Notes under the pieces: model-generated
Told to the model about the DNA's origin: nothing
The model's input: only the letters and a program-made list of their open reading frames with translations
Databases searched by the model: none
NCBI RefSeq assembly: GCF_045037415.1
Contig: NZ_CP173440.1
DNA from: Escherichia coli
GTDB lineage: Bacteria > Pseudomonadota > Gammaproteobacteria > Enterobacterales > Enterobacteriaceae
Reading direction: 5' to 3' (one strand)
DNA: 64,000 bases
Part shown: positions 23,816-64,000 of the stretch, in pieces
Layout of the letters: each line of letters opens with the position of its first letter
Position numbering within the stretch: the stretch's first letter is position 1
Made by a program: the position numbers and the translations under genes

Positions 23816-23878
23816 ATATACCTGCCTGATCTGATATTTACTCTCATCCCTACCCTGCCCCCTGCCTGAGCCACCGCT

Positions 23879-24301
23879 TTATTTCTTTCGGTACTGAATC
23901 TCAACTTTTTCCTCCTTTGTTTTGGCTTCAATACTTAATTCTGCGGTGGGCCTGAGTAGCAGGCGTTGCAGACCGATAGGTTCGCCTGTATCCCGGCAGA
24001 AGCCATATTCTCCTTTTTCAAGCCGCATAAGCGCTGCATCATATTTCGGCAACAGGCGGCTTTCTCTGTCTATCTGTCTGAACAGCAGACGTAACTGCTC
24101 TTCACGAATGGCGATGTCACCTTCGTCACCCGTTTCTGGATTATCCTGCAGTTGTTGCTTCATCTGGTCTATATGATCAAGCACCTCCTGCCTTTCGTGG
24201 CGGATAAGCCGCCGGAAGTAGTCCTGTTGCACAGGATTCATGTAATCTTCTGGCAGCATCGCCAGGATTTTTTCTCGTTCAGCGCGGGTAGGTTTAGTCA
24301 T
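23879..24301 (-). CDS. dksA2: DksA-like protein lacking the Cys4 zinc finger (DksA2-like)
   Basis: DksA/TraR C-terminal region is present, but only one of the four zinc-finger cysteines remains (GFCRDTG…ELSIEAK). Confidence 0.7.
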   Translation of the reverse strand: MTKPTRAEREKILAMLPEDYMNPVQQDYFRRLIRHERQEVLDHIDQMKQQLQDNPETGDEGDIAIREEQLRLLFRQIDRESRLLPKYDAALMRLEKGEYGFCRDTGEPIGLQRLLLRPTAELSIEAKTKEEKVEIQYRKK

Positions 24302-24329
24302 GTCCTGTACCGATAAAATTGCGTAATGA

Positions 24330-24348
24330 AACGTTATAACATAACATT
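24330..24348. promoter_or_regulatory. Zur-box-like operator upstream of the dksA2-like operon
   Basis: AACGTTATAACATAACATT (reverse complement AATGTTATGTTATAACGTT), about 29 bp upstream of the start codon. Confidence 0.55.
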
Positions 24349-24371
24349 AACTGCCGCTGCAAAATAACCTG

Positions 24372-25571
24372 TTAAGCCAGCCGGGCCACTTTCGTGGGCC
24401 AGGGATCGTGGAAAATCCCCCCCTGCTGCCACCAGAGAATTTCCTCTTCAGTGAGTAAACACTGGCGCAATGCGAGGGCAAAATCGTCAATTTCGCCGCT
24501 CTCGCCAATAACAGTCAGGCGGCAGCGCCGGTCACCAAATCTGCCAGGCATTTTTGCCAGTTGCTGACGGATAGCTGCGCGTTCTTCCTTTGTCAATGAA
24601 TTATCAGTGTGAGTCAGGACCCCGGCTTTCCAGTAGCTTATGAATTCGAGATTGATGCTCCCTGCTGCCTGGTTCCACAATAATGCCAGGTCATCCCTTC
24701 CCGGTAGCCAGAAAAACCCCTTGCTGCGGTAAACGCCTGCGCCCATGAAGCGATGGCAGGTATCCCACAGCCGCTGCGGATGAAATGGACGGTCATCCTC
24801 AATGACCCTCCACGAAATATCGTATTTTTTATCGGTTTCATCCGGCAAAACTGCGTCAATGGCATCCTGAAGCTCATCGATAAGTAACGCCACCCGATGA
24901 AAATCGTAATCCGGCATGGAAAGCAATTCATCCAGCTGTAAATTTCCCCAGGGCACGGCCATAATTGCAACCTGGGGATTAAGGGGATGTATGGCTCTGG
25001 CTACCTCAGTAACCACATAGAAGGGTAACCGGTCGTTTTTGGTTAATAAGAGCTTATTACAGAACATAATCTGTTCTGCCAGCAGGCTTTCCACTCCCCG
25101 GGTTCCTTTATTGAGGTGCTCCTGGAAAACCGGAATAAGCTTCTTTCCACCGTCGTAGTCATCATTAAGCATGACCGTATCAACAAGAGACAAAAATGCT
25201 TTGAGACTTACCTGGGTATGTTCTCGCAGATAGCGGACCAGGGGAAGAGGATGGCTGCTACCTGAGGTTTCCAGTAAAATAAAATCCGCAGACCGTTTTT
25301 CGAGCAGGTTTTTCAGCGCGGAATCCAGCTTCTGGATCCCGCTTCTGCTGCTGATACTGTCTGCTGAAATACTCACAAAATTGTTACTGGCTGCATCAAC
25401 GATTTCTGTGTTGGCTATCAGGACGCCATCCACATCAAGTTCACTCATGTCATTAACGATGACGGATACAGTCATTCGCCGTTTGTGTGCCTGTGTAAGA
25501 AGGTTTTTTAGCAGAGTAGTTTTCCCTGCCCCCAGAAAACCATTAAGGATAATGAGCGGTGTTCTTTTCAT
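24372..25571 (-). CDS. COG0523 (CobW/ZigA/YeiR-like) GTPase paralog with SxSA in place of the CxCC motif
   Basis: P-loop [11 protein letters not shown]. Where family members have GCICC this protein has VSISADS. Start set at MKRTPL. Confidence 0.8.
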   Translation of the reverse strand: MKRTPLIILNGFLGAGKTTLLKNLLTQAHKRRMTVSVIVNDMSELDVDGVLIANTEIVDAASNNFVSISADSISSRSGIQKLDSALKNLLEKRSADFILLETSGSSHPLPLVRYLREHTQVSLKAFLSLVDTVMLNDDYDGGKKLIPVFQEHLNKGTRGVESLLAEQIMFCNKLLLTKNDRLPFYVVTEVARAIHPLNPQVAIMAVPWGNLQLDELLSMPDYDFHRVALLIDELQDAIDAVLPDETDKKYDISWRVIEDDRPFHPQRLWDTCHRFMGAGVYRSKGFFWLPGRDDLALLWNQAAGSINLEFISYWKAGVLTHTDNSLTKEERAAIRQQLAKMPGRFGDRRCRLTVIGESGEIDDFALALRQCLLTEEEILWWQQGGIFHDPWPTKVARLA

Positions 25572-25668
25572 AGCATCCAGCCTTATGCCGCTAAACGTTA
25601 ATGCAATCAAGTTGCAATAATACCGGCTTCCTGCCAAAATTCAAATGACATGACTCGGAGGGGGAAAT

Positions 25669-26121
25669 ATGACAACACCAGTAGCCAAAACGTATGACTG
25701 GAAGCAAACGTTGCGCACACATGGTTTGCGGGCAACGCCATCCACCCTTGCTACACTGCAGTGCCTTGAACATGCCAGCCAGGCCATGAGCCATGACGAT
25801 TTAACTCAGCAACTGGGCGAGCAGGCTCCCGATCGTGTGACCCTTTACCGAATACTGGAACGGCTAATGCAGGTCAGTATTGTCCAGCGTTATACCGACT
25901 CGGCAAGAACTCAGCGTTTCGCTCTGACCCAACGGGCTGCCGTAGGACTTTTTGAATGCGATAACTGCCATCATGTTATTCCTATTGAGCAGGATCCAGC
26001 CCTGGAAGCGGCCATTGAATTGGTAAAATCACATCTCACTGGACATGGTATGACCGAACGGGAAATTACCCTTTCCAGTCATGGTATCTGTCCGGACTGT
26101 AATCGTACTATCACCAAATAA
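25669..26121 (+). CDS. zur: Fur-family metalloregulator, probable Zur
   Basis: CDNCHH…CPDC motifs of the Fur family; divergent from a COG0523 gene and co-directional with the CysRS paralog. Confidence 0.7.
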   Translation: MTTPVAKTYDWKQTLRTHGLRATPSTLATLQCLEHASQAMSHDDLTQQLGEQAPDRVTLYRILERLMQVSIVQRYTDSARTQRFALTQRAAVGLFECDNCHHVIPIEQDPALEAAIELVKSHLTGHGMTEREITLSSHGICPDCNRTITK

Positions 26122-26202
26122 TTTTTTTCTTATTCCGGACGACTGTTAATTAGCGCCAGGCGTGTTCGTGTGCTGCTATCTAAAAATAATGAGGTAAACG
26201 TA

Positions 26203-27585
26203 ATGATTAAACTAACAAACACGCTTGGTATGCAAAAGGAGCTATTAGTTCCGGTTAAAGAGAGCAAAATCGGCATGTATGTATGCGGCGTGACGGTTTA
26301 TGACCTTTGCCATCTTGGGCACGCCAGAACCTTTGTAGCTTTTGATATGATTGTCCGCTATCTGCGTTTTCGCGGATACGATGTGACTTTCGTGCGTAAC
26401 ATTACTGATATAGATGATAAAATTATTCAGCGCGCCCGTGATACGGGAGAGGACTGGCGCAGCCTGACAGAGCGGATGGTGCATGAAATGCACATTGATT
26501 TTGCAAAGTTAGGCATCCTGCCGCCAAACATCGAACCTCGTCCCACAGAGCACATCCCACAAATCATCAGTATGATCGAACGACTTCTGCATCGACAATT
26601 TGCTTACATTGCAGAGAATGGTGACGTCATGTTCTCCACTGCATCGGCAAAAGGCTATGGAAAGCTTTCGGGACAGGATATTACCATGCTTCGTGCCGGG
26701 ACCCGCATCGAAGTGAATGAGTATAAACGCGATCCGCTGGATTTTGTTCTCTGGAAGCGGGCAAAACCCGGCGAGCCCGTCTGGCCATCACCCTGGGGTG
26801 AAGGGAGACCTGGCTGGCATATTGAATGTTCCGCAATGAACTGCCATTACCTTGGTACCCATTTCGACATTCATGGCGGTGGTTCTGACCTGATATTTCC
26901 CCATCATGAAAATGAGATTGCCCAATCCACCTCCGCCAATGATGGCCCTTACGTAAATTACTGGCTTCACACCGGCATGGTGACGGTGAATAAAGAGAAG
27001 ATGTCGAAATCGCTGAATAACTTTTTTACCCTGCGCGATATTCTGAATCGGTTCGATGCCCAGAGTGTGCGCTTCTTCCTGCTAAGCGCACATTATCGTA
27101 AGCCGCTGAATTATAGCGAGGAGAATATTCACCTCGCGCGCGCCTCGCTGACACGGCTCTACACCGCATGCCAGTTCGCTGACGGGTCTCGATCTGAACA
27201 GCACGATGCATGGCGGGCCAGATTCTGTGAGGCAATGGATGATGATTTCAATACACCCCAGGCGCTTGCCATTTTATTTGAACTGACAAGAGAGATTAAC
27301 AGGCTTTGCGGAACGAATGATGATGAAGCCGCAGCACTTGCCACCACGCTGAAAGACCTGGGGAATGTGCTGGGTTTGCTTGAACAATCAGCGGATGCCT
27401 TTTTGAAAAACCGCAGTGATCTTCATCCTGCAGAACTGCAACTTATTGAAAAGTTAATTCACCAACGCAGTGAGGCACGACGTATGGGCAAGTGGGACAA
27501 GGCCGATCGTTTAAGAAATGAATTAGCGGAGCAAGGCATTGATCTTGAAGATGTCGGCGAAAATACCTCATGGCGTATCCGATAA
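26203..27585 (+). CDS. cysS: cysteinyl-tRNA synthetase paralog
   Basis: Full-length class I CysRS similarity (GMYVCG…HLGH, KMSKS). Zinc-ligand positions are conserved ([25 protein letters not shown]). Confidence 0.85.
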
Positions 27586-27620
27586 GTTGTCCCTCTGGAT
27601 GTAAAAAATTTCAATATCAA

Positions 27621-27639
27621 TTGTTATGTTATAACGTAA
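27621..27639. promoter_or_regulatory. Zur-box-like operator
   Basis: TTGTTATGTTATAACGTAA, 17 bp upstream of the flavoprotein start codon. Confidence 0.55.
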
Positions 27640-27655
27640 TGCAAAGGGTAATTTT

Positions 27656-28786
27656 ATGAACCAACCACGCGAAGTCGTTATTGTCGGTGCGGGTCCGGCC
27701 GGGGTGGGTATGGCGGCGCTTCTTCGTCGTAGTGCCATACAGGATATCCTGGTCGTTGACAGTCACGAAGTAGGTGCCTCCTTTATGCGCTGGCCGGAAG
27801 AAACCCGTTTTATTACTCCTTCTTTTTTTTCCAATCCGTTTGGACAACCAGACCTGAACTCTGTGACCCCTGACAGTTCATTGGCGCTTTTCTGCGGTGA
27901 AGAACATCCTGGGGGGAAAACTTATGCCAGTTACCTTAAGGCCGTACTGGATGAGTATCAGATACCCGTCATGGCTCCCGCCAGGATTGCAAAGGTTGCG
28001 TTGCTCAGTTCCGGTAATTTTATACTGATAACAGAAGCAGGAGAGAAGCTGGAAACACGCTCTTTAATATGGGCTACAGGCGAATTCCAGTTCCCAGACC
28101 GGCAGATTTTTCCTGGAGCAGATATTTGTTGCCATTACGGTGATGTGACCAGCTGGAAGGATTTCAGGAAAGGTGAATACATTGTTATAGGCGGCTATGA
28201 AAGCGCGGTGGATGCCGCTGTAAACCTGCTGGAAAATGGCTCATCGGTAAAAATGTTAACCCGCTCAGCCCCTTGGTCAACTAACCACATCAGCGATCCC
28301 AGTCTATCGCTTTCCCCTTATACCCGTGAGCGTTTGAACAGAGTGATGAATCACCGTCTTTTCGAAATTTATGAAGATGCGGATGTCTGTGAAGTAATCA
28401 GAATGCCCGGCCCGGGAAGTTCGTACAAAGTCCATACCACAAACGGACGCGCCTGGGCTACTGACGAGGTGCCTGTGCTTGCTACCGGCTTCCAGTGTGG
28501 CGGAGGAGCAAGGCAACTGGCTGCTTTTTTTGAATGGAATGATGATGGCTATCCGGTCTTAACGGACGAAGACTGCTCAACCCTTTTTCCTGGTTTGTAC
28601 CTTGTCGGCCCTCATGTGCGGCATGCCGGTAATATTTATTGCTTTATCTATAAGTTCCGTCAGCGCTTTCCCGTCGTGGCAGAAAGTATCACGCGTCATC
28701 TGGGCCTGTCCTCTGAAGGAGTACGGGACTGGTGGGTTCTGCCTTCAGAGCCTGACTGCTGTGCCGATGAGGACTGTGCGTGCTGA
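27656..28786 (+). CDS. FAD/NAD(P)-binding flavoprotein (flavin-monooxygenase or thioredoxin-reductase-like) with Cys-rich C-terminus
   Basis: VVIVGAGPAGVG FAD-binding fold, second GG…AVDAA dinucleotide motif, LATGFQ motif, C-terminal CCADEDCAC. Confidence 0.6.
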   Translation: MNQPREVVIVGAGPAGVGMAALLRRSAIQDILVVDSHEVGASFMRWPEETRFITPSFFSNPFGQPDLNSVTPDSSLALFCGEEHPGGKTYASYLKAVLDEYQIPVMAPARIAKVALLSSGNFILITEAGEKLETRSLIWATGEFQFPDRQIFPGADICCHYGDVTSWKDFRKGEYIVIGGYESAVDAAVNLLENGSSVKMLTRSAPWSTNHISDPSLSLSPYTRERLNRVMNHRLFEIYEDADVCEVIRMPGPGSSYKVHTTNGRAWATDEVPVLATGFQCGGGARQLAAFFEWNDDGYPVLTDEDCSTLFPGLYLVGPHVRHAGNIYCFIYKFRQRFPVVAESITRHLGLSSEGVRDWWVLPSEPDCCADEDCAC

Positions 28787-30447
28787 GGTCCGTGTTTATG
28801 CAATCATTCGTTTTAATGGGATTAGAAAGTGCAGGAAAATCTACCCTGTTTAATATCCTGACGGAAAGTGCTGCCAGTGATGAGCGTAATTTCAGGGGAT
28901 CGACCGTTGTATGTCGGGAAGGTCTCATTAATGATGCAGGGATCTGCCTGGTTGATACGCCAGGCATACGTTTTCAGAGCGACAGTGAAACCACAAAACT
29001 CGCCCTTGATGCGCTAAATCAGCATGATGGCATTCTGGTGGTTCTGCGGGCCACGCACGCTCAGCAGGAGTGGCAAACGCTCTGTCACCTCATACCGCCA
29101 CAGGCAAAACACGTTGTTATACTCCTGACCTTTGCTGATAAGATCAGAAAGGGCCTTCTGGAAGTGACTGAATACCTGAGTGAAACATCAGGTGCGCCGG
29201 TACTGGCAGTCAATGCCCGGGAAGCTGGCAGCAATGTTCGCCAGGGAATAGTGCAGTTGCTGTTGCAGGATAAACCTGCACCCTCCGCTGTCTCTTTACC
29301 CCGTCAAAAGATACCGGTAATTAATCTGCTGGCTGAATTTCCTCAACAAACGATATTTGAACATCGTTGGTGTGGAAAAGTTGCTGCAATAGTATGCCTT
29401 TTCCTGCTGTTTGCCGTTCCGGTATGGGGGGCATGGCTGCTGTCAGATTTTATTCAGCCTGTCATTGACAGTGCGGTTATTCAGCCGCTTAAGAATATAA
29501 CGACGAGCTGGCCCGACGTTCTGAAGACACTATTTGTCGGCAATTACGGTCTTTTTAGTCTGGGACTTTATTCGTTTGTATGGGCATTTCCTGTGGTGGT
29601 ACTGATAGGGTTGTCTCTTTCGCTGACTGACGACAGTGGACTTAAGGAAAGAATTACAGCGACGCTGGATCCCTGGTTGAGAAAACTCGGCCTCAGCGGT
29701 CAGGACCTTATTCCTGTATTAAGCGGTTTCGGCTGTAATGTCGTGGCGGTTTTTCAGAGCCGTTCGTGTTCGCGATGCACCCGGCATGCTTGTATAAGTA
29801 TGATTAGCTTTGGGTCCGCTTGCAGCTATCAGACGGGGGCGACGCTTTCTCTTTTTAATGCCGCCCATCAACCATGGCTCTTTATCCCCTATCTCAGTCT
29901 GCTGTTTTTCACAGGCGCAATACATACGCGCCTCTGGAACGGGTCGTTGAAGCCTGGCCAAAACCAGCGTCTGACAGAGATCACCTGGCTACAATGGCCA
30001 CGCTGGCGAAATGTGACATGGATGCTGAAAAATATCCTCCGTCAGTTCATTACGCAAGCCATGCCGTTATTCCTGATTATCTGCATTGTTGCGGGGATGC
30101 TTGATTACGCAGGGATCACTCGCTGGCTGAGTGAAACGACGGCACCTTTACTTCATCTTTTTAAACTGCCAGCAGAACTGATGCCCGGGATCATTTTTTC
30201 ACTGCTAAGGAAAGATGGTTTGATGGTGCTCAATCAGGATGGCGGCAGCTTAATACAGTCTCTCAGCACATCTCAGTTACTGCTACTTGTCTGGCTCGCC
30301 TCTACGTTGATGGCCTGCCTTGTCACGGTATTTACCATCGCCCGGGAAATAAACTGGCGGTTTGCAGCAGCAGTGGCGGGAAAACAGGTATTAAGTTCTC
30401 TGGTGGTGGCTCTGGTGATATCCCAGTTATTTATTCATGAGGCATAA
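28780..30447 (+). CDS. FeoB-family transporter with a divergent G-domain
   Basis: G1 GLESAGKSTLFN and G3 DTPG; membrane domain with LSGFGCNVVAV gate-like motif; shorter than canonical FeoB. Confidence 0.6.
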   Translation: MLRSVFMQSFVLMGLESAGKSTLFNILTESAASDERNFRGSTVVCREGLINDAGICLVDTPGIRFQSDSETTKLALDALNQHDGILVVLRATHAQQEWQTLCHLIPPQAKHVVILLTFADKIRKGLLEVTEYLSETSGAPVLAVNAREAGSNVRQGIVQLLLQDKPAPSAVSLPRQKIPVINLLAEFPQQTIFEHRWCGKVAAIVCLFLLFAVPVWGAWLLSDFIQPVIDSAVIQPLKNITTSWPDVLKTLFVGNYGLFSLGLYSFVWAFPVVVLIGLSLSLTDDSGLKERITATLDPWLRKLGLSGQDLIPVLSGFGCNVVAVFQSRSCSRCTRHACISMISFGSACSYQTGATLSLFNAAHQPWLFIPYLSLLFFTGAIHTRLWNGSLKPGQNQRLTEITWLQWPRWRNVTWMLKNILRQFITQAMPLFLIICIVAGMLDYAGITRWLSETTAPLLHLFKLPAELMPGIIFSLLRKDGLMVLNQDGGSLIQSLSTSQLLLLVWLASTLMACLVTVFTIAREINWRFAAAVAGKQVLSSLVVALVISQLFIHEA

Positions 30448-30449
30448 GT

Positions 30450-30656
30450 ATGATCCCCAAGACTTACCAGCAATGGTACCGGTGCATCACAGAAGAATGT
30501 GGAATTCCCTTGACGCAGGCATTTATTGCATCCCGTCTGGCAGTCCTTGAGTCCCAAGATCATCAGGAAACCAGACGTTTTGTCTCGCTATATGGGCAAC
30601 AACATCTGAATAGTGTTGTACAGTGGTTCAAAAAAGCTGGGGAAGAATTGTTGTAA
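30450..30656 (+). CDS. small hypothetical protein, translationally coupled to the FeoB-like gene
   Basis: 68-aa ORF starting 3 nt after the FeoB-like stop. Confidence 0.35.
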   Translation: MIPKTYQQWYRCITEECGIPLTQAFIASRLAVLESQDHQETRRFVSLYGQQHLNSVVQWFKKAGEELL

Positions 30657-30681
30657 ATCTGCCCCCTTTTCGCTTTCATAC

Positions 30682-30710
30682 GAAGGCACCCGACAAATGC
30701 GGGTGCCTTC
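30682..30710. terminator. perfect 11-bp stem hairpin between convergent genes
   Basis: GAAGGCACCCG-acaaatg-CGGGTGCCTTC. A near-identical hairpin recurs at 61555-61585. Confidence 0.4.
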
Positions 30711-30713
30711 GAT

Positions 30714-31937
30714 TCATTCTTCGAACCAGGGCTCAACAGGATCGGAATAATGCCGCCACTTTTGAGGCCCTTCTGCCATTTCTGCATCCGTTAACAGGGC
30801 GGAATCCAGTCTGTTGCGCAGTTCTGATTCATTCATATCCATTCCAATAAAAACGAGTTCCTGACGGGCATCACCAATGCCATCTATCCAGTTAGACATG
30901 ATGAACTTCAGTGACTCAGCATCCTCTGGCCAACGTCCTTTCGGCACACTAGCCCACCACATGCCCCCCAGCCCCTGGCGCGCAATGCCACCTGCCTGCG
31001 ACCATGAACCTGCGAATTCCGGACGGCTGGCCAGCCAGAAGTAACCTTTTGATCTGACGACTCCATCCAGCTCATTTTCCATCACCTGCCAGAAACGGGT
31101 CGGATGAAAAGGCCGGCGGGCGCGAAAGACAAAGCTGGTGATCCCATATTCTTCTGTCTCCGGCGTATGTTCGCCCCGGAGTTCTTTAAGCCAGCCGGGT
31201 GCCTGAGCGGCCTGCTCGAAATCAAACAGCCCGGTATTAAGTATGTTGCCCAGCGGAACCTGTCCAAACTGTGAAACAACGATTCTGGCCCGTGGATTAA
31301 GCGAACGTAAAATCGCCATCAGTTTTTCTTTTTGCGCTTCACTGATAAGGTCAACTTTATTAAGGACCAGCACATCACAGAATTCAATCTGATCGATCAG
31401 CAAGTCAACAACGCTCCTTTCATCACCTTCACCTAACGATTCTCCGCGTGACTGAATGCTGTCTTCCGAACCGTAGTCTTTCAGAAAATTGTACGCATCC
31501 ACCACAGTGACCATGGTGTCAAGGCGGGCCACCGTCGAAAGGCTTTCACCGTCATCGCCCGCAAAGGTAAATGTTTCAGCAACAGGCAGAGGCTCAGATA
31601 TACCGGTGGACTCAATGACAAGCTGATCAAAACGCCCTTCTTTTGCCAGACGATTAACTTCGAGAAGAAGATCTTCGCGCAATGTGCAGCAAATGCAACC
31701 GTTGCTCATTTCTACCAGTTTTTCATCAGTCCGGGAGAGTTCTGCACCACCTTCCCTCACAAGGGCAGCATCAATATTCACCTCAGACATATCATTAACA
31801 ATGACAGCAACACGACGGCCTTCCCGGTTGTTCAGAATATGGTTAAGCAGTGTCGTTTTCCCTGCTCCCAAAAATCCCGAAAGTACGGTAACCGGCAGGC
31901 GTTTATCGCCATGAAAATTTGCACTGACTTCGGACAT
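30714..31937 (-). CDS. COG0523 GTPase with canonical CxCC motif
   Basis: P-loop [11 protein letters not shown] and GCICCTL metal motif, followed by a CobW_C-like C-terminal domain. Confidence 0.8.
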
Positions 31938-31973
31938 TACCTTACATCTCCTCAGATATTCGTTGTGTTCGGA

Positions 31974-32381
31974 TTAACCAGGATCGTTGAGCACGGTTAG
32001 CTCATCGCCTTTAATGGCGTTGTAAAAACAACTCCGCCGACCTGTGTGGCAGGCTCCACCTTTTTGATCCACTAGCAGTAGCACCGCATCTCCGTCACAA
32101 TCCAGACGGATATCATGTACTTGCTGAACGCAGCCGGAGGTCTCACCTTTTCGCCAAAGGCATGATCGGGATCGCGACCAGTAACAGGCTCTGCCAGTCA
32201 ATAAGGTTTCATCAAGAGCCTGTTGATTCATCCAGGCAAGCATCAACACCTCTCCAGTGTCATATTGCTGTGCAATCGCAGCGATCAAACCATGAGAATC
32301 CCAGGGTATTGACGGCAGGATATCCTCAAGCTGAAACACTGCTCCTGCATGGGCTTTTTCCAGTAACAGAAACATTGGCAC
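31974..32381 (-). CDS. hisI: phosphoribosyl-AMP cyclohydrolase paralog (HisI-like)
   Basis: 135 aa with HisI-like core (…WSRSRS…[28 protein letters not shown]); Cys/His ligand positions appear retained. Confidence 0.65.
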
Positions 32382-51843: not shown

Positions 51844-52376
51844 AGAAACAGTAACTTTGATCCATCAATATTCATCCAAAAATATTTTATAAGCATTAAA
51901 AAAAAAAACAACAGAGAATCATTTCTCTTGAAAGTCGTTGGTTACAATTTTTAATGAATAAAAATTCAATCAATCACGGTAAATAGTCATTTTTTTTGTC
52001 TTTGCGTGTTTGCAATTAATTGATCTTTTTTTTTAACCCGCCCCCCTTTATTTTGTCAGTTTGCTTAATAATTCACGATTAAAGATGTGTGGGGAGGGGC
52101 GAGTTTAGGACTTATTTTAAAATCCTTATCAAATAAATACTTTCGCAAAAAACAATTCGCTTAGTAATACTGTCTGTTTCTATAATAACCATGGTAATTA
52201 GATTTCTGAAAAATATGTTCAGATTACCACTAGTGTAACAGTTGGTGCTTGGGAGTTATTTGGCGATTGATCCGACCACATGATCCAGGCTAAATACCCT
52301 CAAAGTAAATTAATATATTGTTCTCCTTGATATCCGGCCCATTTTTTGATTTAATTTCAAATGATAACTGTATAAG

Positions 52377-53039
52377 GTGCAATCAATGAGTAATACTGAT
52401 AACGGGACGAAGATCTACACTCCATTAACTCTGAAACTATATGACTGGTGGGTGCTTTGCATTTCGAATAGTTACGCATGGAATTGTTCAACAAAGGATA
52501 TTTTAATTCCTTATTTTTTACAAAACTTAAGTCCTAACCACCTAGATATTGGCGTTGGTACTGGTTATTATCTCACTAAAATCCCTGCTCACTATAATAT
52601 ATCCCTCATGGATCTTAACCCTGCCAGCTTGAAAGCTGCATCGGCAAGAGTAGGGGAAGATAGAATACACTATAAAGTTAGGCATGATGTATTTGAATCT
52701 TACCCAGAGGAACTTCATGGAAAATTTGATTCCATATCAATGTATTACCTCATCCATTGTCTACCAGGAACAATGGAAGATAAAAGAATTGTCATAAAAA
52801 ACGCGAAGGCCGCCTTAACTAAAGGTGGAATACTTTACGGAGCAACCATACTTGGTGATAAGGTAAGGCATAATAGTTTTGCGTTAAAACTGTTGCAAAT
52901 TTATAACAAAAAAGGTATTTTTTCTAATTTTAGTGATTCAGAAGAAGAACTAAAAAAAATGCTTTCTCATTATTTTAAAAATATTGATGTCATTGTGAAA
53001 GGTGCTGTCGCAATGTTCTCTGCGCATGGAAAAAAATAG
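52377..53039 (+). CDS. class I SAM-dependent methyltransferase
   Basis: DIGVGTGYY (motif I). Paralog of the ORF at 61472..62179. Confidence 0.55.
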   Translation: MQSMSNTDNGTKIYTPLTLKLYDWWVLCISNSYAWNCSTKDILIPYFLQNLSPNHLDIGVGTGYYLTKIPAHYNISLMDLNPASLKAASARVGEDRIHYKVRHDVFESYPEELHGKFDSISMYYLIHCLPGTMEDKRIVIKNAKAALTKGGILYGATILGDKVRHNSFALKLLQIYNKKGIFSNFSDSEEELKKMLSHYFKNIDVIVKGAVAMFSAHGKK

Positions 53040-57543: not shown

Positions 57544-57561
57544 TTGTTATGTTATAACATT
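57544..57561. promoter_or_regulatory. Zur-box-like operator
   Basis: TTGTTATGTTATAACATT, the best match to the window consensus. Confidence 0.55.
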
Positions 57562-57999: not shown

Positions 58000-58827
58000 A
58001 TGAAGCGCAATACCGTAAGTAATCTGACAGAAAAAGATGATTTTGATACGCTGGAAAGTATTCTCAGCGTTAATATTCATTCTCTGTTGCGGCCAGACGG
58101 CGGGACGTTGCTTTCTGACGTCCATTTTGCGGTCAAAGCAGGAGAATGTCTGGCCATTATCGGGCCTAACGGCAGCGGTAAAACTTCCCTCGTGAGAGCG
58201 ATTAGTCAGGAACTGACCCATCTAAAGGGGGACATTCTTCTGCGGGGCCGTTCTATGTCTGCTTTATCCCGTCAACAGCGAGCCCGGCTGGTTGCTGTTT
58301 TGGCCCAGAATGATACACCTGATACGAGATTATCCCTTGAGGATTATGTAGCGCTGGGGCGTATCCCTCATGCCGGGGATGTACCGCGTAATGTACATGA
58401 CGCGATTGTAGCAAATGCCATTAAAGAAACCGGATTACAACGGCTACGCAGGCGGTCACTTTTATCGCTTTCCGGCGGCGAAAGACAACGAGCGGCGCTG
58501 GCACGGGTACTGGCACAGACGCCCGACCTGGTATTGCTTGATGAACCCACCAATCATCTCGATCCTCCCGGGCGCGAGGAACTGCTTTCCCTTGTAAAAA
58601 ACAAGGGGATTGCCGTCGTGGCGGTGTTGCACGATCTGACACTGACAGAATCATTTGCTGACCGTGTTCTCCTCTTGTCGCAGGGGCAATCAGTGATCTG
58701 TGACACACCGGAGAAGGTATTGGTATCAGAATACCTTTATCCCGTTTTTGGCTTGACCAGTTTTACCGTACCGCATCCCCATACAGGAAAGGCGTTGCGT
58801 ATTTTTGAAGTTCCGCATTATGTATAA
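58000..58827 (+). CDS. ABC transporter ATP-binding protein (FecE/FhuC/BtuD-like)
   Basis: GPNGSGKTS, LSGGERQR, LLDEPT. Confidence 0.8.
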   Translation: MKRNTVSNLTEKDDFDTLESILSVNIHSLLRPDGGTLLSDVHFAVKAGECLAIIGPNGSGKTSLVRAISQELTHLKGDILLRGRSMSALSRQQRARLVAVLAQNDTPDTRLSLEDYVALGRIPHAGDVPRNVHDAIVANAIKETGLQRLRRRSLLSLSGGERQRAALARVLAQTPDLVLLDEPTNHLDPPGREELLSLVKNKGIAVVAVLHDLTLTESFADRVLLLSQGQSVICDTPEKVLVSEYLYPVFGLTSFTVPHPHTGKALRIFEVPHYV

Positions 58828-58845
58828 ATTACTTTCCGAGAGTCA

Positions 58846-59805
58846 GTGATGAAAAAATTGTTTATATCCCTGCTGTCGGTACTGTCTGCTTCAGTAGCCA
58901 GTGCTGCCGATTTTCCTGTTACTATTGAAAGTTGTGGGACTCCTGTAACATTCTCCGGCCCGCCGAAAAGGGCTGTGATCAACGACCTTAATATGGCAGA
59001 GATGGCGTTTGCACTGGATTTGCAGGATCGTATTGTTGGGCTGACCGGTATTAGTGGCTGGTACAAAATGACGCCGGAATTTAAAAAGGCGATGGGCTCG
59101 ATCCCTGAACTGGCACCCAAATATCCCACCCTGGAAACATTGCTGGCAGCCGAGCCTGATTTCTTTTTCGCTGGCTGGAACTATGGAATGAAAGTAGGCG
59201 GCGAAGTGACGCCGGATACGTTAAGCAAATATGGCATCAAGACTTTCGTTCTGAGTGAAAGCTGTGTGTTCACCACTGCGCACAAAAATAAAGCCACGAT
59301 GGATCTGCTGTATAACGATATCCTCACGCTGGGTAAGATTTTTGGCAAGCGCAATGACGCACTGTCCCTAGTCAGCGGCTGGCAAAAGAGGCTGAGTGAA
59401 CTGCCGAAGCCAGCGGCAGGTACCCGTCCTTTAAAGGTGTTCGTCTACGACTCAGGTGAGGATAAACCGTTTACCAGTGGTAAATATGCGATGCCTACGG
59501 CCATGATTGAGGCGGCTGGTGGTAAAAATGCAATGGAGGCGCTGGATACCAGTTGGGGAACGACGTCTTGGGAAAGCGTGGCCGCTACTGAGCCGGACTT
59601 CATTATTTTGTTAGATTACCAGACGGGCAGCGGTGCGGATACACTGCGTCATTTTCTTGAGAATCATCCGTTAATGAAACTGACTCCGGCTGTTCAGCAT
59701 CATCGATACCTGAAATTACAATATGCTGAACTGACGCCGGGACCAGCTAATGTTGGTGCGGTGGAAAAACTCGCGTGGGCAATGTACCCGACAGAAGCGA
59801 AGTGA
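58846..59805 (+). CDS. class III periplasmic binding protein (FecB/FhuD/BtuF-like)
   Basis: Signal peptide; size and pattern of chelate/cobalamin-type binding proteins. Confidence 0.65.
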   Translation: MMKKLFISLLSVLSASVASAADFPVTIESCGTPVTFSGPPKRAVINDLNMAEMAFALDLQDRIVGLTGISGWYKMTPEFKKAMGSIPELAPKYPTLETLLAAEPDFFFAGWNYGMKVGGEVTPDTLSKYGIKTFVLSESCVFTTAHKNKATMDLLYNDILTLGKIFGKRNDALSLVSGWQKRLSELPKPAAGTRPLKVFVYDSGEDKPFTSGKYAMPTAMIEAAGGKNAMEALDTSWGTTSWESVAATEPDFIILLDYQTGSGADTLRHFLENHPLMKLTPAVQHHRYLKLQYAELTPGPANVGAVEKLAWAMYPTEAK

Positions 59806-60809
59806 TGCTCATGTCGTACCGTTATCACTGGGTGATGTGGGGATCGATGGTCGTGCTGATTGGGTTAATGTTATTCAGCATAACCAGAGGGACAGTCTCA
59901 CTGTCGCTAATGCAGGTGCTGGGTGCACTGAAGATTGTGGATGAGCCGGTATCTGCCATGGTCAGCAGAATTGTGACGGATTTACGCGTACCGAGGATGT
60001 TGCTCTCTGTGCTGACAGGGGCGGGACTGGCAATGGTAGGGGCATTGTTACAAACTACCACCCGTAACGATCTGGCTGATCCTTTTTTATTCGGGTTATC
60101 CTCCGGTGCGTCAGCAGGAGCGGTGCTGGTGATCACCCGTTTTGGTGATCGACTAGGAGTATTAACGCTCCCCGTATCGGCGTTTGTTGGTGGTGTGTGT
60201 TCCGCCATAGCAGTAATGCTGTTATTTCATTTTAAAAAGCAACGCGGAGCTGAGCATCTAATTCTCTGCGGTCTTGCCATCTCTTTTTTGTTCGGGGCGC
60301 TGACTAGTTATTTTATTTTTTCGGGCGATCAGCGAGCCGCCAGCTCAGTGCTTTTCTGGTCACTGGGTGGCCTGGGATTAGCCACCTGGAATAATTTGCC
60401 TTTTGCAGTGTTCAGCCTGGTATTGCTGTTTGCCTTTGTCCTGTTGCGGTGGCGCTCTCTGGATGGTGTGCTGGCAGGAGAACAAACAGCGTTGTCGCTG
60501 GGGATTAACGTGAGTCGTCTGCGCATCGAGATTTTTCTTTGTTGTGCACTGGCAACATCGTTGATGGTGGCATTAACCGGCGTGATTGGATTTGTTGGCT
60601 TAATGGTGCCTCATCTGTGTCGGCATTTTGCAGGAGTTAAGCATCTGTTGTTGTTACCTCTGTGTGGCGTCTGGGGTGCAATATTACTGTGTGTCGGCGA
60701 TATAGTCAGCCGGACGATACTGGCACCACAGGAACTACCAATTGGCATTATTACGGCGGGCATTGGAGGGTTGTTTATTATCATGTTACTCGCGCGAAAC
60801 TCGCCCTAG
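59805..60809 (+). CDS. FecCD-family ABC permease
   Basis: Multi-TM protein with FecCD-like motifs; TGATG stop/start overlap with the binding-protein gene. Confidence 0.7.
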   Translation: MLMSYRYHWVMWGSMVVLIGLMLFSITRGTVSLSLMQVLGALKIVDEPVSAMVSRIVTDLRVPRMLLSVLTGAGLAMVGALLQTTTRNDLADPFLFGLSSGASAGAVLVITRFGDRLGVLTLPVSAFVGGVCSAIAVMLLFHFKKQRGAEHLILCGLAISFLFGALTSYFIFSGDQRAASSVLFWSLGGLGLATWNNLPFAVFSLVLLFAFVLLRWRSLDGVLAGEQTALSLGINVSRLRIEIFLCCALATSLMVALTGVIGFVGLMVPHLCRHFAGVKHLLLLPLCGVWGAILLCVGDIVSRTILAPQELPIGIITAGIGGLFIIMLLARNSP

Positions 60810-61129
60810 AGAATATGGGCGATTACTCGCCGGGCCTCCTGTAATTTTCAAGCGATGTTATGAAACGATGGTAATCTAACTGATGGTTTGAGCGTGCCAT
60901 GTAAGTAAAGAAGAACTGGCAAACCTTAATGTTGCATTATATCATAACAAATGATAAGTGAGGCCCAATGTTTCTCTTACTGGTCGTGCTCCCAAGCATG
61001 CCTTTGGCGAAAAGGTTAGACCTCAGGCTGCGTTCAGCAACTACATGATATCTGTCTGGATTGTGACGGAGATGCGGTACTACTGCTTGTGGTTCAAAAA
61101 GGTGAAGCCTGCCACACAAGTCGGCGGAG

Positions 61130-61552
61130 TTGTTTTTACAACGCTACCGCCGGCCTTTTCATCCGACCCGTTTCTGGCAGGTGATGGAAAATGAGCTGGA
61201 TGAAGTCGTCAGATCAAAAGGTTACTTCTGGCTGGCCAGCCGTCCGGAATTCGCAGGTTCATGGTCACAGGCTGGTGGCATTGCGCGCCAGGCGCTGGGG
61301 GGCATGTGGTGGGCGAGTGTGCCGAAAGAACGTTGGCTAGAGGATGCTGAGTCACTGAAGTTCATCATGTCTAACTGGATAGATGGCATTGGTGATGCCC
61401 GTCAGGAACTCGTTTTTATTGGAATGGATATGAATGAATCAAAACTGCGCAACAGACTGGATTCCGCCCTGTTAACGGATGCAGAAATGGCTGAAGGGCC
61501 TCAAAATTGGCGGCATTATCCCGATCCTGTTGAGCCTTGGTTCGAAGAATGA
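61130..61552 (+). pseudogene. C-terminal fragment of a COG0523 gene (about 95% identical to the C-terminus of the 30714..31937 product)
   Basis: …[18 protein letters not shown]…PVEPWFEE aligns to the C-terminus of the 30714..31937 protein; no N-terminal GTPase domain. Confidence 0.6.
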
Positions 61553-62179
61553 ATCGAAGGCACCCGTATTTGTCGGGTGCCTTCGTATGAGGGCGAAAAA
61601 GGGGCCATTTTTTAGCCCTTCTTCAGAATCACTCATATTAGAAAAAATACCTTTGTGATTATAAATCCTCATTAGTTTTGATGTGAAACTATTATGCATT
61701 ACCCCATCGCCAAGTATGGTTGCCCCGTAAAGTATTCCGTCCTTAGTTAAAGCAGCTTTCACGTTTTTTATGACAACACCTTTATCCACCATCGCCCCAG
61801 GAAGACAATGTAAGAGATAATACATTGATATAGAATCGAATTTACCATGTAGTTCCTCTGGATAAGATTCAAATACATTATGCTGAACTTCATACCGTAT
61901 TCTGGCTTTCCCTATCCTTGCTGATGCCGTTTTCAAACTAGCCTTATTGAGATCCATAAGTGAGATATTGTAATTTGCAGGAGCTTTGGCAAGATAATAC
62001 CCAGTTCCAACGCCAATATCTAAATGGTTAGGTCTTAAATTTTGTAAAAAATAAGGGAGCAAAATCTCTTTTGTCGGACAATGCCAAGCGTAACTGTTGG
62101 AAATGCTCAGCACCCACCAGTCATAAAGCTTCAAAGTGAATGGTGTGTAGATCTTCGTTCCTTCATCAACATTACTCAT
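61472..62179 (-). CDS. class I SAM-dependent methyltransferase paralog; 3' end altered by a junction with the COG0523 fragment
   Basis: Matches the 52377..53039 product for about 190 aa (…DIGVGTGYY…) and then diverges into sequence antisense to the COG0523 fragment. Confidence 0.45.
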   Translation of the reverse strand: MSNVDEGTKIYTPFTLKLYDWWVLSISNSYAWHCPTKEILLPYFLQNLRPNHLDIGVGTGYYLAKAPANYNISLMDLNKASLKTASARIGKARIRYEVQHNVFESYPEELHGKFDSISMYYLLHCLPGAMVDKGVVIKNVKAALTKDGILYGATILGDGVMHNSFTSKLMRIYNHKGIFSNMSDSEEGLKNGPFFALIRRHPTNTGAFDSFFEPRLNRIGIMPPILRPFSHFCIR

Positions 62180-62404
62180 TAGTTATACCTTGCAACAGTC
62201 AATGTGGATAAGCAGAGCATATAGCAATATGCTCAATATCTCCTTTCTATTTTATCACGATTTTTTCCACTACTTACCAAGATTTACAACAAACAACATA
62301 TTATTGCAATGCATTGCCATTTTGTTCACATACTTGGCAATTTATAAGTATATTGCATAAATATAAAGTTGACTTTTAGAGTTCTTTTTTGTAGATAAAC
62401 TCTC

Positions 62405-62540
62405 ATGGAAATATGGAAATATGGAAATATGGAAATATGGAAATATGGAAATATGGAAATATGGAAATATGGAAATATGGAAATATGGAAATATGGAAAT
62501 ATGGAAATATGGAAATATGGAAATATGGAAATATGGAAAT
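62405..62540. repeat. 17 perfect tandem copies of the 8-bp unit ATGGAAAT
   Basis: 136 bp of uninterrupted ATGGAAAT repeats in the intergenic region. Confidence 0.95.
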
Positions 62541-62665
62541 GAGGTAAGAAACAGAAGACTATAAAATTTGAAGTCAAAAATGGTAACTGAGCTCCTCCTC
62601 GTTTGGGTGCTTAGGAGATATAACTAGTGGAGAATGAAATATAACTATTACTGCAAAATAACCTG

Positions 62666-63865
62666 TTAAGCCAGCCGGGCCACTTTCGTGGGCCAGGGAT
62701 CGTGGAAAATCCCCCCCTGCTGCCACCAGAGAATTTCCTCTTCAGTGAGTAAACACTGGCGCAATGCGAGGGCAAAATCGTCAATTTCGCCGCTCTCGCC
62801 AATAACAGTCAGGCGGCAGCGCCGGTCACCAAATCTGCCCGGCATTTTTGCCAGTTGCTGACGGATAGCTGCGCGTTCTTCCTTTGTCAATGAATTATCA
62901 GTGTGAGTCAGGACCCCGGCTTTCCAGTAGCTTATGAATTCGAGATTGATGCTCCCTGCTGCCTGGTTCCACAATAATGCCAGGTCATCCCTTCCCGGTA
63001 GCCAGAAAAAACCCTTGCTGCGGTAAACGCCTGCGCCCATGAAGCGATGGCAGGTATCCCACAGCCGCTGCGGATGAAATGGGCGGTCATCCTCAATGAC
63101 CCGCCACGAAATATCATATTTTTTGTCGGGTTCATCCGACAAAACTGCATCAATTGCATCCTGAAGCTCATCGATAAGTAACGCCACCCGATGAAAATCG
63201 TAATCCGGCATGGAAAGCAATTCATCCAGCTGTAAATTTCCCCAGGGCACGGCCATAATTGCAACCTGCGGATTAAGGGGATGTATGGCTCTGGCTACCT
63301 CAGTAACAACATAGAAGGGTAATCTGTCGTTTTTGGTTAACAAGAGCTTATTACAGAACATAATCTGTTCTGCCAGCAGGCTTTCCACTCCCCGGGTCCC
63401 TCTGTTGAGGTGCTCCTGGAAAACCGGAATAAGTTTCTTTCCACCGTCGTAGTCATCATTAAGCATGACCGTATCTACAAGCGACAAAAATGCTTTAAGA
63501 CTTACCTGGGGGTGTTCTCGCAGATAGCGGACCAGGGGAAGAGGATGGCTGCTGCCTGACGTTTCCAGTAAAATAAAATCCGGAGACCGTTTTTCGAGCA
63601 GGTTTTTCAGCGCGGAATCCAGCTTCTGGATCCCACTTCTGCTGCTGATACTGTCTGCTGAAATACTCACAAAATTGTTACTGGCTGCATCAACGATTTC
63701 TGTGTTGGCTATCAGGACGCCATCCACATCAAGTTCACTCATGTCATTAACGATGACGGATACAGCCATTCGCCGTTTGTGTGCCTGTGTAAGAAGGTTT
63801 TTTAGCAGAGTAGTTTTTCCTGCTCCCAGAAAACCATTAAGGATAATGAGCGGTGTTCTTTTCAT
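62666..63865 (-). CDS. second copy of the SxSA-type COG0523 GTPase paralog
   Basis: Protein differs from the 24372..25571 product at only a handful of positions; DNA identity begins right after the stop codon (24357 / 62652). Confidence 0.8.
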   Translation of the reverse strand: MKRTPLIILNGFLGAGKTTLLKNLLTQAHKRRMAVSVIVNDMSELDVDGVLIANTEIVDAASNNFVSISADSISSRSGIQKLDSALKNLLEKRSPDFILLETSGSSHPLPLVRYLREHPQVSLKAFLSLVDTVMLNDDYDGGKKLIPVFQEHLNRGTRGVESLLAEQIMFCNKLLLTKNDRLPFYVVTEVARAIHPLNPQVAIMAVPWGNLQLDELLSMPDYDFHRVALLIDELQDAIDAVLSDEPDKKYDISWRVIEDDRPFHPQRLWDTCHRFMGAGVYRSKGFFWLPGRDDLALLWNQAAGSINLEFISYWKAGVLTHTDNSLTKEERAAIRQQLAKMPGRFGDRRCRLTVIGESGEIDDFALALRQCLLTEEEILWWQQGGIFHDPWPTKVARLA

Positions 63866-63961
63866 AGCATCCAGCCTTATGCCGCTAAACGTTAATGCAA
63901 TCAAGTTGCAATAATACCGGCTTCCTGCCAGAATTCAAATGACATGACTCGGAGGGGGAAA

Positions 63962-64000
63962 TATGGCAACACCAGTAGCCAAAACGTATGACTGGAAGCA
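63962..64000 (+). CDS. zur: second copy of the Zur-like regulator gene, 5' end only (runs off the window)
   Basis: ATGGCAACACCAGTAGCCAAAACGTATGACTGGAAGCA matches the start of the 25669 gene with one substitution. Confidence 0.55.

Follow-up and report, generated by a model that had tools for sequence, protein, structure and literature searches.

A repeated GTPase-regulator module probably marks two related zinc-starvation islands on a pLVPK-like virulence plasmid

We find that a 64,000-nucleotide stretch of Escherichia coli DNA (contig NZ_CP173440.1, hereafter the window) carries twice a module consisting of a G3E GTPase gene and a divergent Fur-family regulator gene. The repeat is most probably (roughly 0.8) the conserved core common to two related, separately evolved zinc-starvation islands that now share one plasmid. 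The repeat is real but ordinary: the plasmid family has been sequenced hundreds of times and its zinc cluster has been known since 2009, the island being already in the literature (Haas et al. 2009, PMC2770081; Lam et al. 2018, PMC6202445).

Results

Comparison of the window with itself (blastn) aligned positions 24357-25706 with 62651-64000 over 1350 ungapped bp at 97.56% identity (33 mismatches, E = 0), up to the window end, which truncates the alignment. The first-pass annotation had described the repeat at 98-99% identity; its presence in two copies is borne out, the measured identity is 97.6%, and the end proposed for the first copy, 25720, lies 14 bp past what the window allows. Its abrupt start at the stop codon is also seen, 15 bp 3' of the stops (24372-24374 and 62666-62668). 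We take the extent from blastn because a separate repeat finder returned just a 300-nt family. Sequence past base 64000 comes from the near-identical record NZ_CP072809.1, not from the window's own replicon. In that record the match runs to the equivalent of position 25723, where copy 2 has lost 96 bp in frame; past this gap it goes on for another 239 bp at 95.4%, stopping within the regulator gene's 3' end at what corresponds to 26057. The module comprises the following features (strand given where one applies).

24357..26057: first copy of the module, 1701 bp by comparison with NZ_CP072809.1, covering the GTPase gene, the intergenic operator region and the larger part of the Fur-family regulator gene
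62651..64000: second copy as far as the window shows it; about 255 bp more in NZ_CP072809.1
24372..25571, minus strand: copy 1 GTPase, a CxCC-less G3E (cobW-like) protein of 399 aa (WP_000831732.1, annotated 'GTP-binding protein')
62666..63865, minus strand: copy 2 GTPase, CxCC-less and intact, 399 aa (WP_004902162.1)
25669..26121, plus strand: intact Fur-family regulator (the 'zur' of the first-pass annotation), 150 aa, two CxxC motifs
63963..64000, plus strand: regulator remnant of copy 2, first 38 nt in the window
25598..25620: palindrome TTAATGCAATCAAGTTGCAATAA, candidate operator between the GTPase and regulator genes
63892..63914: palindrome of copy 2, identical to that of copy 1

The two GTPases differ at 6 amino acids. 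Matches to the Pfam models cobW (PF02492, E = 7.5e-26) and CobW_C (PF07683, E = 2.8e-16) identify a P-loop G3E domain as well as a C-terminal one with an RxK motif; the Walker A and ExxG motifs and TKND are kept in 116 homologues, and so, among homologues, is RSKGFFW, which contains the RxK motif (for its significance in the C-terminal domain, see PMC13001444). The CxCC metal motif of switch I is absent: an alignment with YjiA places FVSI opposite CICC, the region contains no cysteine at all, and C.CC is missing from all 120 best homologues. Haas et al. ascribe CxCC to all COG0523 members, and in their study it serves as an inclusion criterion (PMC2770081). The earlier label 'COG0523' thus holds for the cobW and CobW_C domains and fails at the CxCC motif. 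Scores against the ZigA model NF038288 (203.4 bits for copy 1 and 198.6 for copy 2) do not reach its cut-off of 600, whereas the plasmid's true zigA scores 702 bits; the GTPase shares about 30% identity with this ZigA.

Compared with zinc metallochaperones of the ZigA, YeiR and YjiA type, the GTPase has the cobW and CobW_C domains and the Walker A, ExxG, TKxD and RxK motifs in common, but not their CxCC. The mycobacterial proteins Rv0106 and Mrf are likewise Zur-linked and COG0523-like and depart from the canonical CxCC, according to Haas et al. (PMC2770081). In Rv0106, however, the GTPase motifs are missing too, whereas the present protein keeps them intact, and the Mrf model matches weakly (72-74 bits), far under its cut-off of 375. 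In a literature search whose reach ended short of the published COG0523 sequence-similarity-network paper, we found no described CxCC-less COG0523 subgroup.

The copy 1 regulator has a FUR domain and two CxxC pairs (CDNC and CPDC), and PF01475 is recorded for its 150-aa orthologues at three loci. Among solved structures it matches PerR and Fur best (E about 1e-6) and E. coli Zur less well (E = 1.2e-3), and with 31.6 bits it stays below the cut-off of 167 of the Zur model NF008646; of the name 'zur', then, Fur-family membership survives and assignment to Zur does not. The regulator start codons lie at 25669 and 63963, so that just 38 nt of the second gene fall within the window. Beyond it, in NZ_CP072809.1, the copy 2 regulator carries the 96-bp in-frame deletion, has lost 32 residues of the DNA-binding domain and has a replaced C terminus without the second CxxC; the remnant gave no family match.

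Within 3 mismatches, no Zur box of the GTTATAnnATAAC type is present in the 97-bp promoter region between GTPase and regulator. A different conserved palindrome takes its place, and an alignment shows it to be kept in Kosakonia, Klebsiella and Pantoea islands. We located these sites by alignment, as a strict degenerate pattern missed the GTPase-side sites over one flank position. The palindrome (TGCAA-N5-TTGCA) presumably resembles the Streptomyces Nur box. GTPase homologues without an adjacent regulator occur in Pectobacterium, Pseudomonas graminis, Obesumbacterium and Vibrio, and are uninformative on the operator.

The window is part of a pLVPK-like / hybrid Klebsiella pneumoniae virulence plasmid, a type defined by rmpA/rmpA2, peg-344 and iucABCD-iutA on an IncHI1B/IncFIB replicon; rmpA, rmpD, peg-344, iuc and rmpA2 are annotated around the region. 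The copies lie in two islands.

22953..32072: ~9-kb patch running from folE2 to zigA in island 1, with copy 1 inside it (outer crossover limits)
24331..24347: canonical Zur-box-like site at the dksA2 promoter, just outside the repeat, matching the pLVPK LV190 site (Haas et al. 2009)
30714..31937, minus strand: intact zigA of island 1, encoding a CxCC-containing COG0523 protein; source lineage of the fragment at 61147-61605
52377..53039, plus strand: paralogous SAM methyltransferase beside rmpA
57544..57560: Zur-box-like site by the island 2 ABC transporter
58000..60809, plus strand: ABC transporter of island 2 (ATPase, binding protein, permease)
60974..61605, plus strand: hisI remnant (60974-61144) and remnant of the C-terminal third of zigA (61147-61605)
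61472..62179, minus strand: class I SAM methyltransferase of island 2, paralogue of 52377-53039
62405..62540: 8-bp tandem repeat ATGGAAAT x17, between methyltransferase and copy 2

Island 1 (about 15.8-33 kb), a pared-down form of the Zur-regulated cluster known from pLVPK, contains hemB2, pyrC2, thrS2, folE2, dksA2, the GTPase, the Fur-like regulator, cysS2, zigA and hisI2. In Haas et al. (PMC2770081), this same cluster has Zur boxes at LV196 (hisI2-yciC) and LV190 (dksA2-folE2-cam), which correspond to the sites at 32394 and 24331 in the window; its sole listed COG0523 protein is LV195 (zigA/yciC), not the duplicated CxCC-less gene, and the part of the paper covered here does not mention a second, decayed island. 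The window differs from the pLVPK cluster in carrying another allele over ~9 kb. This patch (22953-32072) is identical, with 3 mismatches, to an E. coli chromosomal island probably of the KpZM type, and diverges by 2-10% from the classical pLVPK-type allele. The chromosomal island adjoins a tyrosine recombinase and the ybt (yersiniabactin) locus. KpZM, as described by Lam et al. (2018, PMC6202445), is a ~34-kb Zn2+/Mn2+ metabolism module that has an integrase of its own and sits directly upstream of ICEKp/ybt, and the E. coli island matching ~23.0-32.0 kb fits it by published description (tyrosine recombinase, ybt, aztABCD, sit-like and zinc-paralogue genes). The plasmid islands, in contrast, are without integrase, azt and sit transporters and intact thrS2; neither an integrase nor ybt is found within the window.

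Island 2 spans about 57.5 kb to just beyond the window end. As the first-pass annotation had noticed, paralogous methyltransferases and related COG0523 C-terminal sequences lie nearby: in blastn, the SAM methyltransferases (52374-52957 and 61608-62191) match at 80% DNA identity, the C-terminal part of zigA (30661-31119 and 61147-61605) at 96.5%, and a piece of hisI (32017-32187 and 60974-61144) at 91.8%, all in inverted orientation. An intact island on the Enterobacter hormaechei plasmid pOHT403-4_1 is colinear with copy 2 and its flanks at 97-99.6% (ABC transporter 98.9%, zigA part 97.5%, methyltransferase 97.9%, 3' part of the regulator 99.6%); the module is single-copy there, with one matching place in the record. 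Relative to this plasmid the window shows deletions of about 900 bp (in the hisI/zigA remnant), 235 bp (altering the 3' end of the methyltransferase), 3 kb and 96 bp. With no island 1 on the same plasmid, the second island type also occurs in intact form on IncF plasmids from Enterobacter and Klebsiella. At the left boundary of the repeat, a 14-bp deletion and an 'ACTATTA' patch occur in copy 2 and the pOHT403-4_1 lineage and in neither island 1 allele. We considered this boundary as the end of a mobile element and rejected it, since the sharp edge is accounted for by the lineage-specific 14-bp deletion and patch and by the 3 kb missing in comparison with the intact island of the second type.

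The GTPase copies have diverged with dS 0.098 and dN 0.0065 (omega 0.07), and third codon positions account for 23 of their 31 differences; omega is 0.07-0.12 across all allele pairs. The copy 2 GTPase stands at a dS of about 0.1 from each of three other alleles, including the Enterobacter one. In the detailed comparison of five alleles, 18 sites unite copy 2 with the classical island 1 allele, 16 of them within 24809-25289, and 13 unite it with the Enterobacter allele, 11 of them within 25672-26043; no site unites it with copy 1 alone. The informative sites form 6 runs (permutation p = 9.5e-5), and the alleles are mosaic. Several segments (folE2, the 5' end of dksA2, GTPase, regulator and hisI-zigA) are 95-97% identical between the island types, which argues for one ancestral island behind both.

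Other origins of the pair have to be weighed against two related islands. The first-pass annotation had considered the repeat a likely site of assembly collapse. That the second copy is an artefact, or the pair a collapsed or mis-joined repeat, has nothing in its favor beyond the general risk that repeats pose to short-read assembly, and its probability is practically negligible. Window positions 43281-64000 are colinear with NZ_CP072809.1 at 99.7-99.99% (1 mismatch per segment and a 40-bp VNTR length difference), and the query 60800-64000 is 100% identical to NZ_CP072809.1, NZ_CP040726.1 and other records. At a coverage of at least 80%, the copy 2 context is present in 501 plasmid records and the copy 1 context in 637; most of the listed plasmid records have at least two matching places, and the two contexts occur together in hundreds of complete circular plasmid records. 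Both genes are also present in the nanopore-assembled pKpvST147B (CP040726, PMC6780558), and the copies, differing at 33 positions, share no exact run longer than 189 bp. A recent segmental duplication on the plasmid that took in everything from the stop codon of the GTPase to the start of the regulator would fit the long ungapped block and its sharp left edge near the stop codon, but is very improbable. It conflicts with 33 substitutions in 1350 bp and a dS of 0.098, with an edge already explained by the indel and the 3-kb deletion, with copy 1 lying in an imported stretch to which an E. coli chromosomal island is identical, and with copy 2 flanks of a different island type; neither near-identity at neutral sites nor flanks from a co-resident locus were found. 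Between the two origins proposed at first pass, the dS value thus speaks against recent duplication, and the colinear Enterobacter island and the private indels support two related islands.

An old duplication in an ancestral virulence plasmid deserves more weight, although we consider it unlikely. Here, part of island 1 would have been copied on the same replicon, then rearranged and decayed while staying partly similar to its source by gene conversion, and the Enterobacter plasmid would have received its island from such a virulence plasmid. The ~480-bp tract at 24809-25289 of the copy 2 GTPase, with 16 derived sites common to the classical island 1 allele, is consistent with this account, as are the co-residence of copy 2 with that allele in pLVPK-type plasmids and the other segments at 95-97% between island types. 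However, the second island type exists intact and alone on Enterobacter and Klebsiella IncF plasmids without island 1, its indels are shared with copy 2 and absent from both island 1 alleles, copy 2 differs from the classical allele by about 2% even inside the tract, and dS is about 0.1.

Discussion

Our preferred reading, two related islands on one plasmid, suggests the following history. Island 2 would be what decay has left of a second type of island, a rearranged one that other enterobacterial plasmids still carry intact; after four deletions and truncation at the 3' end, its only intact genes would be those of the ABC transporter, a methyltransferase and the GTPase. The shared core would be a divergent pair, the CxCC-less G3E GTPase and a Fur-family repressor with the conserved palindrome between them. 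With a dS of about 0.1, the copies appear to be diverged homologues from different lineages, probably made mosaic by homologous recombination, and copy 1 in this plasmid lineage appears to have been replaced by the imported ~9-kb allele, identical to the KpZM-fitting chromosomal island of E. coli. Hypervirulence plasmids would then carry two decayed generations of zinc-starvation islands, which trade sequence with each other and with the chromosomal island of probable KpZM type. Copy 2 may still be expressed and, through its retained palindrome, may be controlled in trans by the intact copy 1 regulator; the GTPase may take part in the response to low zinc with no metal bound at the canonical site.

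A comparable low-zinc paralogue island is found in Pseudomonas aeruginosa, where a Zur-regulon region contains dksA2, two COG0523 genes, folE2, cam, pyrC2 and amiA (PMC11672702), again with dksA2 adjoined by a G3E GTPase, and with folE2 and a gamma-carbonic anhydrase present as well. The Pseudomonas genes for DksA2 and the GTPase make up a single operon with a Zur box (PA5536-PA5535), whereas here a separate promoter region with another palindrome belongs to the GTPase, which is paired with a divergent Fur-family gene of its own. In a bolder reading, less likely than not, the divergent Fur-family sensor would control the GTPase and the thrS2 and cysS2 operons through TAAYGCAAY-N3-RTTGCRTTA, a motif distinct from the Zur box, and would form a second regulatory tier inside the zinc-starvation islands. 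The duplicated gene would then be no CxCC-type zinc metallochaperone at all. We offer only tentatively, and with the odds against it, the fuller proposal that the GTPase represents a conserved, undescribed CxCC-less COG0523-like branch with its own Fur/palindrome tier, copy 2 being kept for dosage; an intact GTPase and operator within a decayed island on hundreds of hypervirulence plasmids may reflect selection for dosage in infection. If GTPase and regulator do form a separate metal-response circuit, the finding would matter for understanding how K. pneumoniae withstands zinc restriction by the host.

'cobW', often listed as a virulence-plasmid marker, includes this CxCC-less GTPase paired with its own Fur-like regulator. 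The 8-bp tandem repeat between the methyltransferase and copy 2 (62405-62540) differs in unit number among plasmids.

Extent and gene content of the repeat

Comparison of the window with itself by blastn recovers the module of a minus-strand cobW-like GTPase gene and a divergent Fur-family regulator gene twice, as reported in the first-pass annotation. Positions 24357-25706 (copy 1, island 1) and 62651-64000 (copy 2, island 2) form a direct repeat of 1350 bp with 0 gaps (33 mismatches, 97.56% identity, E = 0), cut on its copy-2 side by the window end at 64000. The repeat is real and far beyond chance, with an identity of 97.6% (33/1350 mismatches) in place of the 98-99% initially given. The methyltransferase and related COG0523 C-terminal (zigA) sequences noticed nearby were recovered as well, together with a hisI piece absent from the earlier annotation.

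24372-25571, minus strand, GTPase gene copy 1, 399 aa
62666-63865, minus strand, GTPase gene copy 2, 399 aa, intact
25669 (copy 1) and 63963 (copy 2), plus strand, regulator gene starts, first 38 nt inside the repeat
52374-52957 and 61608-62191, inverted, SAM methyltransferase paralogues, 80%
30661-31119 and 61147-61605, inverted, zigA C-terminal segment, 96.5%
32017-32187 and 60974-61144, inverted, hisI piece, 91.8%

The left end of the repeat lies 15 bp past the GTPase stop codon, and the 97-bp GTPase/regulator intergenic region is wholly contained in it. In the near-identical record NZ_CP072809.1 (L001), copy 2 runs on to the equivalent of window position 25723 and then lacks 96 bp, an in-frame loss of 32 codons from the regulator DNA-binding domain. 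Homology returns for 239 bp at 95.4% and ends at the 26057-equivalent, so that the last ~20 residues of the copy-2 regulator, including the second CxxC, are exchanged for unrelated sequence. No NCBIfam family gives a match to the remnant. Because of the lost codons, the replaced C terminus and this missing match, the copy-2 regulator is a relic; the copy-2 GTPase gene is intact. Right after the remnant, L001 encodes an inhibitor of c-type lysozyme and an additional peptide deformylase, another metalloenzyme paralogue (23747-25123), with a shiF-like MFS gene and then iucA downstream of the latter.

Copy 2 and the Enterobacter island

From 58513 to beyond the end of the window, island 2 aligns colinearly with an island of the Enterobacter hormaechei plasmid pOHT403-4_1, which contains, in order, an ABC transporter, intact zigA, a methyltransferase, an alpha-hydroxy-acid oxidase, DoxX, a folE2 remnant, the dksA2 5' end, the GTPase and an intact regulator. 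The corresponding segments are 98.9%, 97.5%, 97.9%, 99.1%, 97.1% and 99.6% identical. Compared with this island, the window is altered as follows.

zigA, loss of about 900 bp
methyltransferase 3' end, loss of 235 bp
oxidase, DoxX, and folE2 and dksA2 remnants, loss of 3 kb
regulator, loss of 96 bp
regulator 3' end, truncated

The 235-bp deletion removes the native 3' end of the methyltransferase gene (61472-62179, minus strand), which now reads into antisense zigA and encodes 235 aa instead of 217; the altered protein may or may not be functional. Upstream of this gene sits a highly variable octanucleotide repeat, ATGGAAAT (62405-62540); the window has 17 copies, NZ_CP072809.1 has 12 and the E. 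hormaechei island has 1. Matched lengths in other plasmids vary here by multiples of 8 bp.

A four-allele alignment around the left edge of the repeat reveals a 14-bp deletion taking half of the dksA2 Zur box and an 'ACTATTA' patch directly before 24357, both private to copy 2 and the Enterobacter island. The box is complete in both island-1 alleles. In copy 2, the junction of the 3-kb deletion follows about 20 bp to the left of these features. As these features account for the edge, it is ruled out as a duplication end point. Because the private changes are shared only with the Enterobacter island, copy 2 is, judged by sequence, a member of this second-type island lineage. A single module copy, of the island-2 type, is found in pOHT403-4_1 and two similar K. 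pneumoniae plasmids (records H94-H96).

Island 1 and its imported allele

Annotated genes in island 1 (about 15.8-33 kb) are hemB, dihydroorotase, M14 peptidase, a shortened thrS, DUF1460, QueD-like, gamma-carbonic anhydrase, folE2, a DksA paralogue, the GTPase, the Fur-family regulator, cysS, an oxidoreductase, a FeoB-like protein, zigA, hisI and a second Fur-family gene. Canonical Zur boxes are found in the window at 24331, 27621, 32394, 36537 and 57544. Island 1 is the Zur-regulated cluster marked on pLVPK in Haas et al. 2009 (PMC2770081), whose two listed Zur boxes, for hisI2-yciC and dksA2-folE2-cam, equal the window sites 32394 and 24331.

Compared with a chromosomal island of E. coli, the thrS paralogue (19062-20099, minus strand) has an in-frame internal deletion of 951 bp (317 codons), and no sit-like ABC transporter separates thrS from DUF1460; island 1, too, is therefore a reduced form. 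Window 23000-32000 differs from the E. coli island by 3 mismatches only, versus 7-88 mismatches per 500 bp from the classical plasmid. Both flanks show the reverse pattern, being identical to plasmids of the classical pLVPK type. A ~9-kb patch from folE2 to zigA (22953-32072) is thereby defined, with crossovers inside 22952-22984 and 31932-32073. In E. coli, the island adjoins the yersiniabactin locus (ybt) and a tyrosine recombinase and also holds aztABCD, the sit-like transporter and full-length thrS; its setting and content agree with what Lam et al. 2018 (PMC6202445) describe for the KpZM module. The allele is present at at least 99% in about 92 plasmids, and the 96% allele in about 598. 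The patch is an allelic replacement specific to the hybrid-plasmid lineage of the window.

Origin of the two copies

Since copy 1 lies in a patch matching the E. coli island between classical-type flanks, the window's pair of copies arose via allelic replacement and not by duplication in place. The first-pass annotation had offered a recent segmental duplication or two related islands. The colinearity with Enterobacter and the private left-edge changes bear out the latter. The GTPase copies carry 31 differences (23/31 at third codon positions, 6 amino-acid changes), corresponding to dS 0.098, dN 0.0065 and omega 0.07, and a dS of 0.1 speaks against a recent duplication, as do the imported patch around copy 1 and the second-type lineage of copy 2. 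Omega is 0.07-0.12 across all pairs of four alleles, and the GTPase gene has therefore been under purifying selection throughout; values of 0.4-0.8 for the zigA fragment and 0.6-0.7 for the regulator indicate relaxed constraint, at few sites.

We compared four alleles over 1701 columns: A (copy 1 of the window, identical to the E. coli chromosomal allele), B (island 1 of the classical pLVPK type, from plasmid p.P20Z), C (copy 2 of the window) and D (the Enterobacter island).

A with D and B with C, 18 informative sites, 16 inside 24809-25289
A with B and C with D, 13 informative sites, 11 inside 25672-26043
A with C and B with D, 0 informative sites

The informative sites fall into only 6 runs (permutation p = 9.5e-5). 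In the central third of the GTPase gene, copy 2 groups with the classical island-1 allele, its co-resident in classical plasmids, and in the regulator part with the Enterobacter type; B and C still differ by about 2% inside the shared central tract. Such a mosaic is expected of homologous recombination or gene conversion between islands.

The repeat had also been flagged as a likely site of assembly collapse. At at least 80% coverage, we counted 501 plasmid records with the copy-2 context and 637 with the copy-1 context, most records among the matches listed report two or more places, and the longest exact run common to both copies is 189 bp, all of which speaks against collapse. Nor do long reads show one copy only in related plasmids: pKpvST147B, assembled from nanopore reads with Illumina correction (PMC6780558), has WP_004902162.1 and WP_000831732.1, the two GTPase genes, at a distance of about 40 kb from each other.

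A CxCC-less GTPase and a candidate operator

The GTPase has Pfam cobW and CobW_C domains and keeps Walker A, ETSG and TKND motifs as well as the RSK motif of the C-terminal domain; RxK is a conserved arginine finger according to a 2026 preprint (PMC13001444). The CxCC motif is missing: YjiA CICC aligns with FVSI in a cysteine-free segment, and the motif is likewise absent from 120/120 best database homologues. A conserved NF..[ST]..ADSISS segment takes its place in the ~120 closest homologues, from Enterobacterales and some Pseudomonas, Vibrio and Shewanella. The GTPase scores 203 bits against the ZigA model (cut-off 600). In Haas et al. 2009 (PMC2770081), CxCC is stated for all COG0523 members and is an inclusion criterion, and because of this criterion LV195 (zigA) is the sole pLVPK entry listed. 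We found no description of a CxCC-less COG0523-like subgroup in the literature searched.

The regulator belongs to the Fur family and has two CxxC pairs; it scores far below the cut-off of the Zur model (31.6 versus 167 bits) and has PerR and Fur as its best relatives of solved structure. No canonical Zur box was found in the shared GTPase/regulator intergenic region. This region contains the palindrome TTAATGCAATCAAGTTGCAATAA, the same in both copies, whose core TATTATTGCAAYNNNATTGCATT does not vary among the orthologous intergenic regions of Kosakonia, Pantoea and another Klebsiella, with diverged flanks. Upstream of thrS2, both the window and the E. coli island have a related palindrome, as do Kosakonia and Klebsiella. 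The consensus TAAYGCAAY-N3-RTTGCRTTA, distinct from the window's canonical Zur boxes, occurs at the following sites (L007 and L009 are relatives' loci with 150-aa regulator orthologues).

Window 25598-25620, 63892-63914 and 20123-20143
L007 5941-5966 and 10365-10385
L009 7315-7335

The palindrome is a candidate operator for the island's own regulator. Conservation across genera extends to the gene pair and the palindrome; in the window, both copies have an intact GTPase gene and identical palindromes, and only copy 1 has an intact regulator. We envisage that the Fur-family protein would act through the palindrome to repress the GTPase, the thrS2 operon and the operon that it shares with cysS2, and that copy 2 would be controlled by this protein in trans. 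The GTPase could act in the low-zinc response through GTP-dependent action on a client or partner, and not through CxCC-borne zinc.

Host plasmid

Many K. pneumoniae plasmids of 260-390 kb, including phvKpST395_NDM1_1657 (NZ_CP072809.1) and pKpvST147B (NZ_CP040726.1), match window 60800-64000 at 100% identity. Annotated around the region are rmpA, rmpD, peg-344, IS1, IS5, the aerobactin operon and rmpA2. The region is the pLVPK-derived virulence region of an IncHI1B/IncFIB hybrid plasmid. Island and plasmid are well known and heavily sequenced, and novelty is low; only the ~9-kb imported allele and the CxCC-less GTPase, regulator and palindrome observations might be worth further work. A type I-E casE gene, together with DEAD/DEAH helicase fragments, is annotated on the virulence plasmid at 54222-56220 (minus strand), adjoining IS5 (56332-57300); neither a CRISPR array nor other cas genes were noticed near casE. 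The virulence region contains several old paralogous segments, as rmpA/rmpA2 and the two methyltransferases show; rmpA (window 51253-51843, minus strand) and rmpA2 (L001 41094-41729) are diverged paralogues of about 85% DNA identity.
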